A stretch of DNA of 64,000 nucleotides from Phototrophicaceae bacterium. Lineage in GTDB: Bacteria > Chloroflexota > Anaerolineae > Aggregatilineales > Phototrophicaceae. The stretch spans positions 207,096 through 271,095 of the forward strand of contig CBDCQL010000001.1 of assembly GCA_965220615.1 (NCBI GenBank), given 5' to 3'. Position numbers and translations under genes: made by a program. The notes under the pieces were generated by a model. It saw nothing but the letters and a program-made list of their open reading frames with translations, did no database searches and was not told the origin of the DNA. Shown piece after piece: positions 4,466-36,402 of this stretch. Each line of letters begins with the position of its first letter. The first letter of the stretch is position 1.

Positions 4466-5848
4466 TCAAGCCCTGATCCTGGCGGAGGCCAGACTCAGCA
4501 ACTCGCCGACGTCGTCCAGTTCCTCAAGGCGGGCACAGGAATCGAGCAGGCCGACGATTTGCTCCTCGGGCAGCAGGTCCCCGACGAGATAGCGGAACTT
4601 GCCCTCGAACTCCGCGTCGCTCAACATGTTTTCCGGCTCGCCGAGGGCGTAAGCCACCTCGCTGCTGTACTGTTTGCCATCGCGCGTGTTGATGCGCAGC
4701 TTGCAGCCGTTTCCGCCGGAGTTCTCCAGTTCCTCGTCCAGCTCAACCTTGACCAGACGCCGCAGATGGCGCGTCATGGGCTCGTCCCAGGTCTCGATAT
4801 CCGTGCGGTACCAGGCGCCGCGCTGCAGGACGACGGCGACGGTCACCGGCAGGCTGAAACCCGCCTGGCCGGTTGTCTCCGGTTCGGGATCGATGCGGAA
4901 GAAGGGGTTGATCGCCTCGTAATAGCTGCCGATCTCGATCGAGGTGATGGCCTCAAGGTCCAGACCGCCGTTGCTGCGCACCAGCGCCTGGGTCGCATCG
5001 ACGCAGGAGTGCACGTGGCGGCAACCGGCGTGCGGCTTGAAGCCCGTCTCCGCCAGGCCGCCGCGCTTCCCCAGGACCTCCAGGTAGGCCGGGTCGTAAC
5101 CCGGGCCAAAGGCGTGGAAGTAACCATACTCACCGTCCAGGGCGCCGGGCGGGCCCTGGAAGCCGAATTCGGCCATGCGCGCCGCCATGATGCCGTTGCG
5201 CGCGCCCAGCCCGGCCAGCAGGTCCTTGGTGTCGCAGTAACCGGCGTCCCAGACGTACTGTTCGGTGCCGCTGGCCATGTCCATCGCAAGGGCCAGCGCC
5301 TGGCCGATCAGCTCCTCACTCAGCCCCATGGCGACCGCCGCCGTGACGGCGCTGGCCATCGAGCCCACCTGACTCTTGTGGTCCAGGCCGCGCTCGCGCT
5401 GCCAGTCCCGCACCCAGGGCTGAATGGCGTCGAAGACGTCGTAGCCCACGGCCATCGCAGTGATCAGGTCGCGACCGGCCAGATTCAGATGCTCGCCGAG
5501 GGCCAGCACGACCGGCGCCAGTTCCGAGGCCACGTGCCCCGAAAGACGGCTGGTGTCGTCCATGCCCAGGAACTTGCACATGGTGCCGTTGGCCCAGGCC
5601 GCGCCCTCGGCGTTGCTGCTGCGCCCGTCGGCGATGATCGTCGATTCCTCACCCGGCATGCGGTGCGCGGCGTATTCCGCCGCCAGCCGGCCCAGACGCG
5701 TCTGGTAGCCGCCCAGGGCGGTGCCGATCGTGTCCAGAATCACCTGACGGGCGCGGATGATCGCCGTCTCGCTCAGGTCCTCATAGCGCAGGTTGGCGGC
5801 GTGCGCGGCGATGACGTCCACGGCATTGCGACCATTACTCGTGCTCAT
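4466..5848 (-). CDS. MmgE/PrpD family protein, paralog 4 (type A)
   Basis: ORF 4466..5854. Shares HKSQVGSM, CDTKDLLAG and PENMLSDAE states with paralog 2. ATG 5848 (MSTSNGRNAVDV) with GAGAGG 8 nt upstream is preferred over TTG 5854. Confidence 0.85.
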   Translation of the reverse strand: MSTSNGRNAVDVIAAHAANLRYEDLSETAIIRARQVILDTIGTALGGYQTRLGRLAAEYAAHRMPGEESTIIADGRSSNAEGAAWANGTMCKFLGMDDTSRLSGHVASELAPVVLALGEHLNLAGRDLITAMAVGYDVFDAIQPWVRDWQRERGLDHKSQVGSMASAVTAAVAMGLSEELIGQALALAMDMASGTEQYVWDAGYCDTKDLLAGLGARNGIMAARMAEFGFQGPPGALDGEYGYFHAFGPGYDPAYLEVLGKRGGLAETGFKPHAGCRHVHSCVDATQALVRSNGGLDLEAITSIEIGSYYEAINPFFRIDPEPETTGQAGFSLPVTVAVVLQRGAWYRTDIETWDEPMTRHLRRLVKVELDEELENSGGNGCKLRINTRDGKQYSSEVAYALGEPENMLSDAEFEGKFRYLVGDLLPEEQIVGLLDSCARLEELDDVGELLSLASARIRA

Positions 5849-5878
5849 AATCAAAACCTCTCTACTCTCGGCCCGCTG

Positions 5879-7060
5879 TCACTGGCGCAGCAGGGCACGT
5901 AACTCCCGGGTGACGTGATCGATATCCTCACGCGTAAATTCCTGCGTCACGGGCAGGGTCAACAAGCGGTCGGCCAGGCAGTCGGTGACCGGCAGCCTGG
6001 CGGCGTTGGGCAGGCCGTGGCGATAGACCTCGTAGTGGTGCACCGGGGGCGTGTAGTGCAGCGCCGCCTCGACGCCGGCGGCGCGCAAGCCATGGTAACA
6101 CTCCTGCTGGTTGTCGACGCCGATAGTGAAGGAACGAAAAGTGGGTTCGGATTCGGGACGGAAGGTCGGCAAGGTCGCCGGGATGCCGGCCAGGCCCTCG
6201 CGGTACCACTGGACGATCTCCCGTCGCTGCTGCGTCCAATGGCGCAGATACGGCAACTTGACGTGCAAAACGGCGGCCTGCAGGCCATCCAGCGAGAGAT
6301 TGTAGCCCTCGTCGATGGCGTACTGCCGGCCCGGAATCTCCGCTTCCCAGTCCTCGCTGCGGCCGGCGCCGTAGGCGGTCAGCAGGCGCAACTTCTCGTG
6401 CACCTGCGGCTCGCTGGTCGCCACCGCCGCGCCACTGCCGACGCCGCCGAAGGGCTTGTAGGGCGCGAAACTGAAGACGACGGCATCGGCGAACACGCCG
6501 ACGCTGCGGCCATAATCGCGCGCGCCGGTGGCGAGGCAGGCATCCTCGACGATCATCAGGCCATGGCGGTCGGCGATCTCGCGCAGGCGCTTCACGTCGG
6601 CGGGGTGGCCGTGCATGTCGACCGGCAGCAGGGCGCGGCTGCGATCGCTGATCAGGGGCTCCACGAGGTCCGGGTCCATGTTGTAGTCGCTGGCGCGCAG
6701 GTCGCAGAGGACGGGCGTGGCGCCGCAGTTGCTGATCGCCGCCGTGGTGGAAATATCGGAATTGGCGACCGTGATGACCTCGTCGCCGGGGCCCACGCCG
6801 CAGGCGCGCAGGGCCAGAAAGAGGCCGCAGGTGCCGGAGTGCACGCCCACCGCCCAAGTCTGCTCCACTTCGGCAGCGAAGGCTTCCTCGAAGTCCTTGC
6901 GGGCGCGATAGCTGCTGTCGTTGGCGCTGAAGAGCATCGGTTCCAGCGCGGCCAGGATCTCCTCGCGCAGGGCCTGATGGGTGAGGTAGTTGCGCGAGCG
7001 CGGGATGGCGAAGCGGCCCTGTTCGGCGTAAATCCGTTCTTCCTGTGAAAGTGTGACCAT
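5879..7060 (-). CDS. DegT/DnrJ/EryC1/StrS-family PLP-dependent aminotransferase
   Basis: ORF 5879..7129. Motifs AVGVHSGTCGLFLALRA, DEVITVANSDISTTAAI, MIVEDACLATGA and VVFSFAPYKPFG (Lys-bearing PLP motif). Start trimmed to ATG 7060 (MVTLSQ) behind AGGAGG; the longer ORF would overlap the upstream permease stop at 7080. Confidence 0.8.
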   Translation of the reverse strand: MVTLSQEERIYAEQGRFAIPRSRNYLTHQALREEILAALEPMLFSANDSSYRARKDFEEAFAAEVEQTWAVGVHSGTCGLFLALRACGVGPGDEVITVANSDISTTAAISNCGATPVLCDLRASDYNMDPDLVEPLISDRSRALLPVDMHGHPADVKRLREIADRHGLMIVEDACLATGARDYGRSVGVFADAVVFSFAPYKPFGGVGSGAAVATSEPQVHEKLRLLTAYGAGRSEDWEAEIPGRQYAIDEGYNLSLDGLQAAVLHVKLPYLRHWTQQRREIVQWYREGLAGIPATLPTFRPESEPTFRSFTIGVDNQQECYHGLRAAGVEAALHYTPPVHHYEVYRHGLPNAARLPVTDCLADRLLTLPVTQEFTREDIDHVTRELRALLRQ

Positions 7061-7079
7061 GGGCGCCTCCTGTACCCGC

Positions 7080-8015
7080 TCAGTCGCGGCCACGCACGTT
7101 GGGGTCGAGCGAATCGCGCAGCCAGTCACCGAGGAAGACCACGCCCAGCACGGTGATGGTGATGGCGATGCCCGGGTAGGCCGTCATCCACCAGGCGCTG
7201 TTGATCACCGACTTGCCGTCCGCCAGCTGGATTCCCCAGGTCACCGTGGGCGGCTTGACGCCCAGGCCCAGGAAACTGAGTGAGGACTCGGCGAGCATGG
7301 TGATGCCGACCTGCAGCGCGGCCAGCACGATGGCCGAGGCGATCACGTTCGGCAGGATGTGATGCAGCACGACCCAAAGCGGCCGCTGGCCGATGGACCA
7401 GGCCGCCAGGACGTAATCGTTTTCGCGCGCCTTGAGCACCTCGCCACGGATCACGCGCGCGTAGGTCACCCAGCCCGAGAGGCCGAGAATCAGAATCAGC
7501 GTGACGAGGCCCGGCCCGACGATGCCCGAGATCGCCACGACGCGGATCACGAAGGGAATGCTGAGCATGGCGTCGCAGATGCGCATCATGAAGCCGTCGA
7601 CGCGCCCGCCAAGAAAGCCGCTGGTCAGGCCATACAATACGCCGATGGTGCCGGCGATCATGACCGCCACCACGCCTACCAGCACCGACACGCGACTGCC
7701 GACCAGAATGCGGCTGAAGATATCGCGCCCCAGCTGGTCTGTGCCCAGCAGATGAGTCGCCCCGTCGTCGCCCGTGAAGCCGGGCGGTTTGTAGCGGGTG
7801 CGCAGGTTGCCGCGGATCGGATCGTGGGGAACGATGTAGGGACTGATCAGCGCCAACACAATGACCAGGGAAATGATGCCCGTCCCGATCAGTCCGATGG
7901 GACTGCGCCGCAGCAGCGACAGCAGCGAAGGCTGGCGCGAATGACCGGTGACCAGAGTCGCCACCTCGCCTTCGGACTGTGCGGAAGCGGCAGGCTCGCC
8001 GGGCCCTGTGCTCAT
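7080..8015 (-). CDS. ABC transporter permease, DppC/OppC-like (peptide/nickel type)
   Basis: ORF 7080..8057. Polytopic membrane protein with LLGTDQLGRDIFSRIL and a BPD-transport signature region (AWSIGQRPLWVVLHHILPN). ATG 8015 is preceded by GGAGGC and follows the upstream stop at 8032. Confidence 0.8.
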   Translation of the reverse strand: MSTGPGEPAASAQSEGEVATLVTGHSRQPSLLSLLRRSPIGLIGTGIISLVIVLALISPYIVPHDPIRGNLRTRYKPPGFTGDDGATHLLGTDQLGRDIFSRILVGSRVSVLVGVVAVMIAGTIGVLYGLTSGFLGGRVDGFMMRICDAMLSIPFVIRVVAISGIVGPGLVTLILILGLSGWVTYARVIRGEVLKARENDYVLAAWSIGQRPLWVVLHHILPNVIASAIVLAALQVGITMLAESSLSFLGLGVKPPTVTWGIQLADGKSVINSAWWMTAYPGIAITITVLGVVFLGDWLRDSLDPNVRGRD

Positions 8016-29473: not shown

Positions 29474-29597
29474 CAGCGGCACAGGAAGGAGCCTGCCCTG
29501 ACACACGCTCTCCTGTTGGGCAGCGACTGGCTTTGAACCACCCGTCAAACCTGCAATAATACTGCAAGGGAAGTTCTTTTTTTGTAGAGGTGTGATC

Positions 29598-31169
29598 ATG
29601 CGCGCTCACCTGTTTTTGCTGTGTTTTCTTATTTTGATCGTGGCGGTTCCAGCCAGTCAGGCGCAGGAGGACCTGTGTCCGGCCGGCCTGCCGAAGCGTC
29701 CCGCGCTTTCAGGACATATTGAGCAAGCCGATATTCTGGACGGCACGCTGAGCTTCGATGAAGTTCTCGCTCATGGTGAAGAGTTGTTCACCGTCCTTTT
29801 CAACGTCTGCGACGGTCAGGGCCGCCCGGCGACCACCGGGGGCGTGGTCGCGCGGGAAGCGGACGAACCGGCCTTCAGCCGCGTCTCCGCGCCCGATTCC
29901 AACTCCTGCGCCGGTTGCCACATTCAGCCGCGCATCGGCGGTGGCGGCGAATTTGGTCTGAACGTGTTTGTGATCGCCCAGCACGCGGACCCCGTGCTAG
30001 AAACAACGTCCATGTCGATGAGCAATCATCGCAATCCCCTGGGAATGTTCGGCGCCGGCCCGATCGAGATGCTGGCGCGCGAAATGAGTACGGACCTGCA
30101 GGCCCTGCGAGCAGAAGCCGGGGCCAGGGCCAGGGAACAGGGCCAGGCCGTGACGGTGGAACTGGTGACCAAGGGCGTGAACTTCGGCCTGTTGACGATG
30201 CGGGCCGATGGCACGCAGGATTCCAGCGGCGTTGAAGGCATCGACCATGACCTGGTGGTCAAGCCATTCCACCAGGCCGGGACGAAGATTTCATTGCGCC
30301 AGTTTTCCGCCAGCGCCATGAACCATCACCACGGCATGCAGGCCGAGGAACGCTTCGATCTCAACCCCGACATCATGGACCCCGACTTCGACCGGGACGG
30401 CGTGCAGCGCGAACTGACCATCGGCGACATCACCGCCATCACGCTCTTCCAGGCGGCCCTGGCGACACCCGGGCGCGTCCTGCCGCAAGACCCGGACCTG
30501 CGGGCCGCCGCCATCCGCGGCGAGCAGGTCTTCGAAAGCATCGGCTGCACAGGTTGTCACATCCCTGAACTGCCTCTCGAGTCGCGCTTCTTTTCCGACC
30601 CGAACCCCTTCAATCCGACCAACACCATGACGGACATGTCACAGACCGTCCGTTTTGACATGACCGTGCAGGGCCGGCAGCCGCGACTGGAACGCAGCGG
30701 CGAAGGCGCCATCGTGCGCGCTTTCACCGACCTCAAACGTCACAGCCTCTGCGACCCGCCGGAGCAGCCGGACGCCATCCGCTTCTTCTGCAACGAGGTG
30801 CTGCTGGACAGTCGGCCGGACCAGAACGGCAGATCAGGCTCGGAGTTCTTCCTGACGCGCAAGCTGTGGGATGCCGGCAGTTCGGCACCCTACGGACATC
30901 GCGGCGACCTGACCACCCTGTCCGAGGCCATTCTAATGCACGGCGGTGAGGCGCGCGCGACGCGCGATGCCTTCACTGAACTTCCCTTCGCCGAGCAACG
31001 CGCGGTCGTGGAGTTCCTGCTGTCGCTGCAGATCCTGCCGGAGGGCCAAACCGGCGGGCCCGGCCTGACGGCCTCACAGGCGGTGATCGCCTTGCCTGGC
31101 GGATTGCTGCTGCTCGGCCTGCTGGGCGGCGTCCTGGCCCGGCGGCGACGCGGTGAAAACGGCGGGTAA
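29598..31169 (+). CDS. Di-haem oxidoreductase (DUF1111 / putative peroxidase family) with signal peptide and C-terminal sorting-like anchor
   Basis: ORF 29592..31169. ATG 29598 sits behind AGAGG. Signal peptide HLFLLCFLILIVAVPASQA. Two CxxCH haem motifs (CAGCH, CTGCH). GHRGDLTTLSEAILMHGGEA is typical of DUF1111. Tail is PGGLLLLGLLGGVLARRRRG. Confidence 0.8.
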   Translation: MRAHLFLLCFLILIVAVPASQAQEDLCPAGLPKRPALSGHIEQADILDGTLSFDEVLAHGEELFTVLFNVCDGQGRPATTGGVVAREADEPAFSRVSAPDSNSCAGCHIQPRIGGGGEFGLNVFVIAQHADPVLETTSMSMSNHRNPLGMFGAGPIEMLAREMSTDLQALRAEAGARAREQGQAVTVELVTKGVNFGLLTMRADGTQDSSGVEGIDHDLVVKPFHQAGTKISLRQFSASAMNHHHGMQAEERFDLNPDIMDPDFDRDGVQRELTIGDITAITLFQAALATPGRVLPQDPDLRAAAIRGEQVFESIGCTGCHIPELPLESRFFSDPNPFNPTNTMTDMSQTVRFDMTVQGRQPRLERSGEGAIVRAFTDLKRHSLCDPPEQPDAIRFFCNEVLLDSRPDQNGRSGSEFFLTRKLWDAGSSAPYGHRGDLTTLSEAILMHGGEARATRDAFTELPFAEQRAVVEFLLSLQILPEGQTGGPGLTASQAVIALPGGLLLLGLLGGVLARRRRGENGG

Positions 31170-31269
31170 CGGCACGCCGGTTGTCGATCTGGCGGAGGCA
31201 GATCTGGCGCAGACGCCTGCGGTATGCAATTGACTGCGGATTGCCGCCGCGGCATGGCATCGCCGGCCA

Positions 31270-31791
31270 TCAGTGCCAGTCATGGGCGGGCGGCATCGGC
31301 ATGGCGGCCTCCAGGGCCTGCACCTCCGAGACGATGACGTTGGCGGTGCCGTCCCAGCGGTCCGCCACGCCCCGCAGCAGAATCAGGTCATTGGCCATTT
31401 CCCTGCGGTAACGCTCATAGACCCGCGGCCAGAGGATGAGTTGGACGTCCCCCTCTTCATCCTCGACGGTGACGAATACCGTGCCGTCCCTGCCCTTCGG
31501 GTGCTGCCGGGCGATGGCCCAGCCGGCGACGAGGACTTCCGCGCCTTCTTTCGCCCCCTCCACGGCCGTGATGGACAGCACGTCGGGGCCCAGCGTGGGC
31601 CGCAGGGTGAGCCCGGCAGCCCACAGGGCCTGGCGGCGGTTGTCCATGATCGCATCCAGCGAGCCGGCACGGACCAAGGGGGAGCGCGGGGAGCGGTCGA
31701 TGATGACGACAGGTTGGTCTTTCAGTGCGGGCTGGCGCTGCAACTCGATTTCGGCCCTCAGGTGAAGGATGAGCAGGCAGGCGATCCTCAA
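31270..31791 (-). pseudogene. Relic in-frame fusion of an ImuB/Y-family-polymerase N-terminus with the C-terminal OB-fold region of DnaE2 (error-prone Pol III alpha)
   Basis: ORF 31270..31812. The probable start is TTG 31791 behind GGGGAG, giving (M)RIACLLILHLRAEIELQRQPALKDQPVVII (ImuB/DinB-like start). It continues ...RRQALW...VLVAGWAIARQHPKGRDGTVFVTVEDEEGDVQLILWPRVYERYRR...LLLRGV, which is the DnaE2 C-terminal pattern. Only 173-180 aa remain, against more than 1500 aa for the two intact genes. Confidence 0.55.
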
Positions 31792-31832
31792 GACGACTCC
31801 CCGGTCCGGCAATCCGAACAGTGCATGAGGCC

Positions 31833-31861
31833 AGCATATAGAATATATGTTCGGTTATCAA
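31833..31861 (-). promoter_or_regulatory. Candidate SOS-regulated promoter: TTGATA-N17-TATGCT with a CGAAC-N4-ATTC (Gram-positive-type LexA box, one mismatch) in the spacer
   Basis: Minus-sense read: TTGATAaCCGAACATATATTCTaTATGCT. The box occupies 31840-31853, about 40-50 nt upstream of the relic ORF start. Confidence 0.45.
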
Positions 31862-32024
31862 CGGTTTGGCGGGAAACAGGGGACGGTGGCGGGTTGACAC
31901 CAGGGAATGCGCCCAACGAGCGTCCGCCTGGAAAGTCCTGCTGTTCAAGCGAGCGCCGGTTCGTCAGCCCGTCAGGTCGCGACTGATGCTCAGCGGGGCT
32001 GGCACATCTGCGACCGACCGGCCT

Positions 32025-35535: not shown

Positions 35536-36402
35536 ATGAGCCAGAATATCGAGGATCGGGGTTACGTCCACCCCGAGAAGCTCGTTTCCACAGAATGGGT
35601 CGCGGAGCACCTGGATGATCCGCAAGTCCGCATCGTTGAATCCAACGAGGACCCGCTGCTCTATCCCTCCAGCCACTTGCCCGGCGCCGTCCAGATCGAC
35701 TGGACGGTGGACCTGAACGATCACCTCCGCCGCGACTACCTCGACCAGTCCGGTTTTGAGTCCCTGATGTCGCGCAACGGCATCACGCGGGATACGACCG
35801 TGGTGTTTTACGGCGACCGCAGCAACTGGTGGGCCTGCTACGCCCTGTGGGTCTTCCAGCTCTTCGGCCATGAAAACGCGCGCGTGATGGACGGCGGCCG
35901 CAAGAAGTGGGAACTGGAAGGCCGCCAGCTGGTGCGCGAGGTGCCCGTGTATCCCCACACCGATTACCGCGCGCCCGCTCGTGACGACCAGACCGAGCGC
36001 GCCTTCCGCGACGACGTACTGGCCCACGTCGAGGCCGGCAAGCACATGGTGGACGTGCGCAGCCCGGAGGAATTCAGCGGCGAACTGCTGCACATGCCCG
36101 GCTCGCCGCAGGAAGGCGCCCTGCGCGGCGGTCACATCCCGGGCGCGAGCAGCGTCCCCTGGAGCCGCGCCACCAATCCCGAGGATGGCACCTTCCTCAA
36201 CGCGGCCGACCTGCGCGCGATCTATGAGGAGGAAAAGGGCCTGAGCCCGGACGACGACGTCATCACCTACTGCCGGATCGGCGAGCGCAGCAGCCACACC
36301 TGGTTCGCGCTGAAGTACCTGATGGGCTATGACCAGGTGCGCAACTACGACGGCAGCTGGACGGAATGGGGCAACCTGGTCAACGTTCCGATCGAGCGCT
36401 GA
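35536..36402 (+). CDS. Thiosulfate/3-mercaptopyruvate sulfurtransferase (tandem rhodanese domains)
   Basis: ORF 35401..36402. ATG 35536 sits behind GAGGAG. Contains [10 protein letters not shown], and the active-site loop [13 protein letters not shown] (CRxGxR). Confidence 0.85.

Follow-up and report, generated by a model that had tools for sequence, protein, structure and literature searches.

What is a minus-strand open reading frame that sets out like the Y-family polymerase homologue ImuB and finishes like the error-prone polymerase DnaE2? The frame lies near the middle of a 64,000-nucleotide stretch of the genome of a Phototrophicaceae bacterium (Chloroflexota, class Anaerolineae), hereafter the window, to which positions refer unless another contig is named. 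An earlier note, made from the letters of this DNA, described an in-frame relic of 173–180 aa under an SOS promoter, attributed it to a collapsed mutagenesis cassette and left two options: a decaying pseudogene or a small SOS-induced OB-fold protein. We find the frame as described (Table 1) and arrive at the first option as the favoured one, for the reasons set out below.

The frame can be counted from either of two TTG codons. The downstream one is in frame, and its alignment partner is the ATG of the orthologous stub in the related genome G004. It is also the start used in the public record of this genome's 687-kb contig, where the product is a 173-aa CDS. An antisense open frame of 237 aa (31273..31986, plus strand) overlaps the relic; we regard it as a shadow ORF of GC-rich DNA.

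Table 1. Positions of the fused frame, its segments and its promoter elements in the window
Feature	Position	Strand	Remark
Fused ORF	31270..31812	-	180 aa counted from TTG at 31812, uninterrupted
Probable true start, TTG	31791	-	gives 173 aa
Shine-Dalgarno-like GGGGAG	31797..31802	-	5 nt upstream of TTG 31791
-35 hexamer TTGATA	31856..31861	-	TTGACA in G004, G007 and G009
-10 hexamer TATGCT	31833..31838	-	17 nt from the -35 hexamer
Cheo-type LexA box remnant CGAACATATATTCT	31840..31853	-	in the promoter spacer; core GAAC-ATAT-ATTC
imuB-derived segment, codons 1-47	31672..31812	-	91% nt and 86% aa identity to the G009 imuB start
Junction 1, TGGT(C/G) microhomology	31672..31676	-	3,941 nt missing
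Short dnaE2 middle piece	31607..31671	-	~residues 878-901 of the 1060-aa G009 protein; HhH end and RRQALW stretch
Junction 2, 20-nt stretch	31587..31606	-	matches both copies of an imperfect direct repeat
dnaE2 C-terminal tail	31270..31586	-	~residues 956-1060: linker, complete OB fold, C-terminal tail, stop codon
OB fold, PF01336	31318..31536	-	within the dnaE2 tail

The larger, C-terminal part of the frame is the extreme C-terminus of DnaE2, as had been read from the sequence. In a profile search, residues 77-179 align with positions 941-1046 of the 1047 positions of NCBIfam model NF004225, 'error-prone DNA polymerase' (E 2.6e-19, 68.8 bits), whereas DnaE1 models score at most 25 bits; the best profile family is the error-prone polymerase rather than DnaE1. 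The Pfam OB domain (PF01336) matches residues 93-165 (E 2.8e-8). As in the C-terminal OB domain of the C-family polymerases DnaE1 and DnaE2, the full length of the PF01336 model is covered, but in the relic this domain is detached from a polymerase and the conserved helical segment that should precede it has been deleted. Searched against PDB sequences, the 173-aa protein gave no match at E <= 0.01.

The N-terminal half is not settled by profile searches alone, since the first 45 residues on their own give only a faint match to the Y-family model Pfam IMS (E 0.21). Residues 1-51, on the other hand, share 86% identity with the beginning of an ImuB-like frame in the related genome G009 (E 4.5e-21), and the switch from ImuB to DnaE2, placed after about 45 residues by eye, falls at residue 47. 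The comparison indicates that codons 1-47 descend from imuB.

The relatives provide the intact counterpart. Searching 40 related genomes (this genome being G000) with the 180-aa protein, we found in four members of the same genus (G007, G009, G010 and G011) that residues 1-51 match the start of a ~500-aa open frame with up to 86% identity, while residues 45-83 and 70-180 match the end of a ~1074-codon frame with 80-90% identity. The second frame, dnaE2, begins 43 nt before the end of the imuB frame. In G009, the ImuB-like frame measures 510 codons from stop to stop (495 aa from the first start) and the dnaE2 frame 1074 codons (1060 aa from the first start); relic residues 70-180 are 89% identical to the dnaE2 end, 4.6 kb beyond the imuB start match. 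The G009 DnaE2 matches NF004225 from end to end, with 779 bits vs 571 for DnaE1, and comprises PHP, Pol3, finger, HhH and OB domains, PHP through HhH occupying residues 20-894. Its 495-aa partner is a Y-family homolog (Pfam IMS, 9.7e-13; BLASTP against the DinB of this genome, E 9e-8), with L, P, G and R at the positions where this DinB carries its catalytic D12, D14, D107 and E108. Loss of the Y-family catalytic carboxylates is a hallmark of ImuB. Judged by these features, the relatives' imuB and dnaE2 genes are genuine.

In G007, G009 and G011 the intact cassette occupies the same syntenic position. The gene order in G007 and in the metagenomic locus L039 is MutY, TPR protein, imuB, dnaE2 and GFO/IDH/MocA oxidoreductase, with the same flanks as in the window. 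Neither imuA nor imuA' was found at the cassette locus of the relatives, and the cassette of this lineage thus consists of two genes. The ancestry proposed for the two halves is upheld by imuB and dnaE2, which sit intact at this very position in relatives, with no imuA' beside them. In G010 the intact cassette (G010:C1:1569329-1574013, L020) lies ~200 kb away from the TPR/oxidoreductase locus of that genome (1365825-1369364); the cassette has moved, or was independently acquired, within the genus.

LexA-regulated imuA/imuA'-imuB-dnaE2 (imuABC) mutagenesis cassettes are established (PMC3919608; PMC3901139, which cites Abella 2004 and Erill 2006). Many configurations, including some with missing members, have been described (PMC3901139), and so has the architecture of DnaE2, which ends at the OB domain (PMC3901139, PMC3919608). 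The intact orthologs of the congeners resemble these systems in having imuB followed by dnaE2, a catalytically dead ImuB, a LexA operator in the promoter and a DnaE2 that ends at the OB domain with no C-terminal domain. The relic, in contrast, has been reduced to one fused frame that lacks any catalytic or interaction domain, in a lineage without imuA or imuA' at the locus.

Aligning the relic with the G009 cassette at the nucleotide level resolves the fusion into two junctions. At the first, imuB beyond ~codon 47 and dnaE2 before ~residue 878 are both absent. The two genes are in different frames and the missing length equals 3 x 1,313 + 2, which is why this junction joins imuB and dnaE2 in one frame. 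At the second, the two repeat copies stand 144 nt apart in each of the four intact dnaE2 genes (147 nt in G010), and the loss amounts to 144 nt or 48 codons. Part of what these codons encoded is a conserved element of DnaE2 tails, situated directly before the OB fold (consensus GEY..MGIYP.GH.MEF). Altogether, 3,941 + 144 = 4,085 nt have been lost and ~13% of the cassette coding DNA survives in a single fused frame. The earlier idea of one deletion of more than 4 kb that fused the genes in frame was thus correct in size and in outcome, but two deletions were involved instead of one. By a naive estimate, both deletions would leave the frame open with a probability of about one in nine, rising to one in three if dnaE2 was still under selection when the 144-nt deletion occurred.

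Measured against its intact counterparts, the fused ORF retains ~47 of 495 ImuB residues and lacks the complete Y-family body of palm, finger and little finger together with the C-terminal partner-binding region. From DnaE2, it lacks the PHP, Pol3 catalytic, finger and (HhH)2 domains, all of which lie inside the 3,941-nt deletion. It is shorter than its intact syntenic orthologs and its essential domains are gone, as in a pseudogene. This genome (3.2 Mb, two contigs, 98.7% complete) carries one DnaE1-like gene, one dinB-like gene and one lexA, and no second imuB or dnaE2 was found in it. With the catalytic and partner-binding parts gone and no second copy of either gene, the product cannot act in a mutasome, and the organism should be without DnaE2-dependent induced mutagenesis.

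Other members of the clade have lost the cassette from this position as well. A flank tree built on the MutY-TPR region groups G000 with G004, G007, G008, G009 and G011, and this clade of six holds three intact copies (G007, G009, G011) and three different deletion alleles (G000, G004, G008). The G004 allele consists of the promoter, a perfect box, the ATG and ~24 imuB codons, and then runs straight into the 3' flank of the convergent neighbour gene; no dnaE2 sequence is left at its locus. Its stub is found at L015 1440-1640 (G004:C1, ~1176830-1177030), with the promoter TTGACA-N17-TATCAT and the box GAACATATGTTC. In G008, a 4.7-kb deletion relative to its sister G007, at a 4-nt microhomology, has taken away the promoter and imuB together with almost the whole of dnaE2. 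The scar (L055 200-270; G008:C44, ~35550-35620) holds the last 11 dnaE2 codons only, reading ...MAMPAAHDWH to the stop. As G004 and G008 carry different deletions, the OB tail is dispensable in close relatives and the cassette has been lost repeatedly.

These alleles also bear on the trivial explanation that the cassette is intact in the organism and was collapsed by mis-assembly across internal repeats. One junction does lie at a 20-nt imperfect repeat. The microhomology of 4-5 nt at the large junction, however, is far too short to mislead an assembler, the genome is assembled into two large contigs with the completeness given above, lineage-specific substitutions run all through the relic, and G004 and G008 have comparable yet different natural deletions at the same locus. 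We consider an assembly artefact highly improbable.

Remnants that arise by microhomology- or repeat-mediated deletion offer the closest comparison for the decayed cassette. Like them, the relic has short homology at its junctions, has lost essential domains and has sister alleles that differ from it. It departs from them in that it stays an uninterrupted chimeric ORF with a promoter, and for this reason annotation pipelines call it as an ordinary CDS. Such a pipeline CDS should be flagged as a remnant here, not as an OB-fold or error-prone polymerase protein.

The promoter of the relic is still recognisable. In a consensus scan of 1 kb, TTGATA-N17-TATGCT was the sole sigma-70-like site, with 0.1 expected from shuffled sequences, and its spacer carries a box with one mismatch from GAAC-N4-GTTC; both elements had been pointed out beforehand. 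In G004, G007 and G009 the corresponding promoter has the form TTGACA-N17-TATC(A/C)T, its spacer holding a perfect GAACAT(A/T)TGTTC, and by alignment the relic promoter is orthologous to this cassette promoter of the relatives. G000 alone has TTGATA and GAACATATATTC in this alignment. Derived in G000 are thus the change from TTGACA to TTGATA and, in the box, from GTTC to ATTC (G to A), both away from consensus.

Gram-positive bacteria and Chloroflexi use the Cheo-type LexA box, GAAC-N4-GTTC. No paper on the LexA box of Chloroflexi turned up in a literature search; the genome's own boxes are in keeping with this type. The relic has the same palindrome within its promoter spacer, except that in one half-site a core G has become A. 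Searching the genome for lexA and for further boxes, as had been suggested, gave the single lexA and four perfect AT-centred boxes, vs ~0.6 expected from base composition. Perfect copies precede the dinB/recF pair and a LexA-like HTH gene. The lexA promoter itself, TTGACA-N17-TATACT, carries GAACAAGTGTAC in its spacer, which also has one mismatch. Taken together, the sites identify the GAAC-N4-GTTC palindrome as the SOS operator of this organism.

Two of these sites deserve a description of their own. A perfect GAACATATGTTC box at G000:C2:319788 (L003 ~1421) lies between divergent dinB-type polymerase and recF genes and may regulate both. A perfect GAACAAATGTTC box stands upstream of an ORF of ~91-106 aa outside the window (G000:C1:329928-330206, L005), of which only a LexA N-terminal HTH was matched (TIGR00498 positions 9-75, E 6.9e-9); its product may be a LexA-like DNA-binding protein without the cleavage domain.

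One-mismatch AT-centred boxes occur genome-wide at chance level (21 observed, ~18 expected), and the relic box is therefore recognisable as a former operator only via orthology. Since the box mismatch and the -35 change are both derived in G000 only, continued damage inducibility of the relic is plausible rather than proven.

We then turn to the distribution of the fused protein. An exact look-up of the 173-aa protein returned one contig only, that of this genome; no match spanned both halves among 5.8 billion protein clusters, and an exact search of metagenome contigs for the 28-mer across junction 1 did not find it. The fused architecture is a singleton and is not conserved in other lineages. 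The cluster search also returned more than 100 proteins of 103-307 aa that correspond to the DnaE2 tail only, several of them on megabase contigs, with a length of 114 aa recurring.

Such tail-only proteins could be taken to mean that the relic belongs to a conserved family of stand-alone DnaE2-tail OB proteins without cassette ancestry. We inspected seven short-tail contexts, among them L036, L037, L039 and L040-L043, and added tblastn searches. In L037 and L039 the imuB-dnaE2 cassette is complete but broken by a frameshift, on long-read contigs of low coverage; L036 and L040 are lone 5'-truncated dnaE2 tails amid mobile-element genes. More dnaE2 similarity lies upstream in another frame in L036, L040, L041 and L042, and L043 has an in-frame interruption. 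The recurrent length of 114 aa is explained by gene callers that pick a conserved internal Met (M-E/Q-F/Y-V/L-R-P) of intact DnaE2. We therefore reject a conserved OB-only family, the seven contexts and tblastn having yielded frameshifted cassettes or 5'-truncated remnants. At the window locus this reading is contradicted by the cassette ancestry, which can be followed base by base, and we give it next to no credence. Of the things that would have spoken against a cassette origin, a conserved stand-alone protein in related genomes was thus not encountered, the tail-only proteins inspected being fragments. Judging by the seven contexts, the short DnaE2-tail 'proteins' so abundant in metagenome catalogues appear to be pieces of broken genes.

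In three of these contexts (L041, L042 and L043, at ~5280-7300 in each) the dnaE2 tail is cut at ~residue 760 and abuts a 79-aa rve transposase fragment, followed by a SRAP gene. SRAP denotes the SOS-response-associated peptidase. The intact cassette of L037 likewise has SRAP downstream, and the arrangement suggests that in the relatives represented by L041-L043 an imuB-dnaE2-SRAP unit was truncated by an IS element.

A more serious competitor is that the fused ORF has been kept as a damage-inducible, stand-alone OB-fold protein, possibly binding ssDNA, that is beneficial without a polymerase. Its frame has stayed open after two deletions, and the geometry of the promoter and the ribosome-binding site are good. 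AlphaFold predicts a five-stranded OB fold with confidence (pLDDT >90 for most of residues 70-160), in agreement with a complete domain, and the operator of lexA, with its own single mismatch, implies that a one-mismatch box can function in this genome. Against this, the architecture occurs in one genome only, the sisters G004 and G008 have discarded the OB part wholly, the promoter and operator have moved off consensus, and the conserved segment in front of the OB fold has been deleted. Nor does any downstream gene rely on translation of the relic, since its neighbour on that side is transcribed convergently. For the ImuB stub, disorder is predicted (pLDDT <50 at residues 1-43), and a fold search gave generic OB-fold matches only, the best being OB domains of PF01336 type.

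The substitution record is divided on this point. In the dnaE2-derived codons, we counted 10 nonsynonymous to 3 synonymous changes on the G000 branch and 3:11 on those of G009 and G011 combined (Fisher p = 0.007); eight of the ten nonsynonymous changes in G000 fall at positions invariant among G007, G009, G010 and G011. Clear relaxation is not claimed from these simple counts, as the branch models gave borderline support only. Branch-model likelihoods were computed under GY94/MG94 with three topologies, four frequency models and two data sets of 133-173 codons. Omega on the G000 branch was 0.22-0.64 vs 0.10-0.23 in the background, a two- to threefold rise in all eight model/data combinations that, like the eight amino-acid changes at otherwise agreed positions, tells against a maintained protein. 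The likelihood ratio test for relaxed constraint was borderline (p = 0.03-0.22), this number of codons being too few to decide. In several models the branch omega is below 1, as a maintained protein would have it, and omega = 1 across the whole G000 terminal branch was rejected in some of them (p = 0.005, F3x4). These figures fit equally well with residual constraint and with a deletion that took place long after the lineage parted from G009 and G011. On balance, we regard a retained SOS protein as unlikely, although it is the alternative that we take most seriously.

A variant would see in the chimeric 173-aa ORF a very young gene of de novo style, in which the deletion has united an SOS promoter, a ribosome-binding site and a free DnaE2 OB fold into a protein that is expressed upon damage, binds ssDNA or titrates a partner, and on which selection is just beginning. 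This, too, seems improbable to us.

We conclude that the 173-codon ORF is most probably a recent, non-functional pseudogene of a LexA-regulated, two-gene imuB-dnaE2 translesion/mutagenesis cassette. Decay is favoured by ancestry and synteny, the base-level junctions, recurrent loss, the singleton architecture, the promoter changes, the branch counts and the predicted disorder of the stub. Weighing against it are the frame that is open over 173-180 codons, the good hexamers, spacing and ribosome-binding site, the complete OB fold and the borderline likelihood ratio test. Between the two options of the earlier note, the decaying pseudogene is favoured over the small SOS-induced OB-fold protein.

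The decay can be sketched as follows. The ancestor carried both genes intact, flanked by the TPR gene on one side and the oxidoreductase gene on the other, as the syntenic copies indicate. A 3,941-nt deletion at a microhomology of 4-5 nt joined imuB codon 47 to dnaE2 ~residue 878, and a 144-nt deletion between imperfect 20-nt direct repeats took 48 more codons upstream of the OB fold; the two events may have happened in either order. The SOS promoter survives, its operator weakened, as does the ribosome-binding site; of the coding part there remain 47 residues of ImuB, a linker and the OB fold of DnaE2. The body and C-terminal region of ImuB have been lost, as have the PHP, polymerase, finger and most of the HhH parts of DnaE2. 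The promoter may still fire, perhaps partly derepressed, and give a short transcript and possibly the 173-aa protein. Neither would be kept by selection, and the locus would be heading for the complete loss seen in sister genomes. The remnant is most likely young and decaying, and perhaps still transcribed.

The locus is a well-resolved case of cassette collapse, not a new biological system. It offers a base-resolved snapshot of the loss of an SOS mutagenesis cassette, with three independent alleles beside three intact copies, and these deletion alleles fit the patchy occurrence already known for imuB-dnaE2.

Indels cluster in the interval from the TPR gene to the oxidoreductase gene, a hotspot for such events. 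Within window positions 29474-31264, a gene of 525 aa at 29592..31169 is variably present in the genus and is found at this locus only in G000, G004 and G002 (73% identical). In G001, G009 and G010, fragments of 90-100 nt occur.
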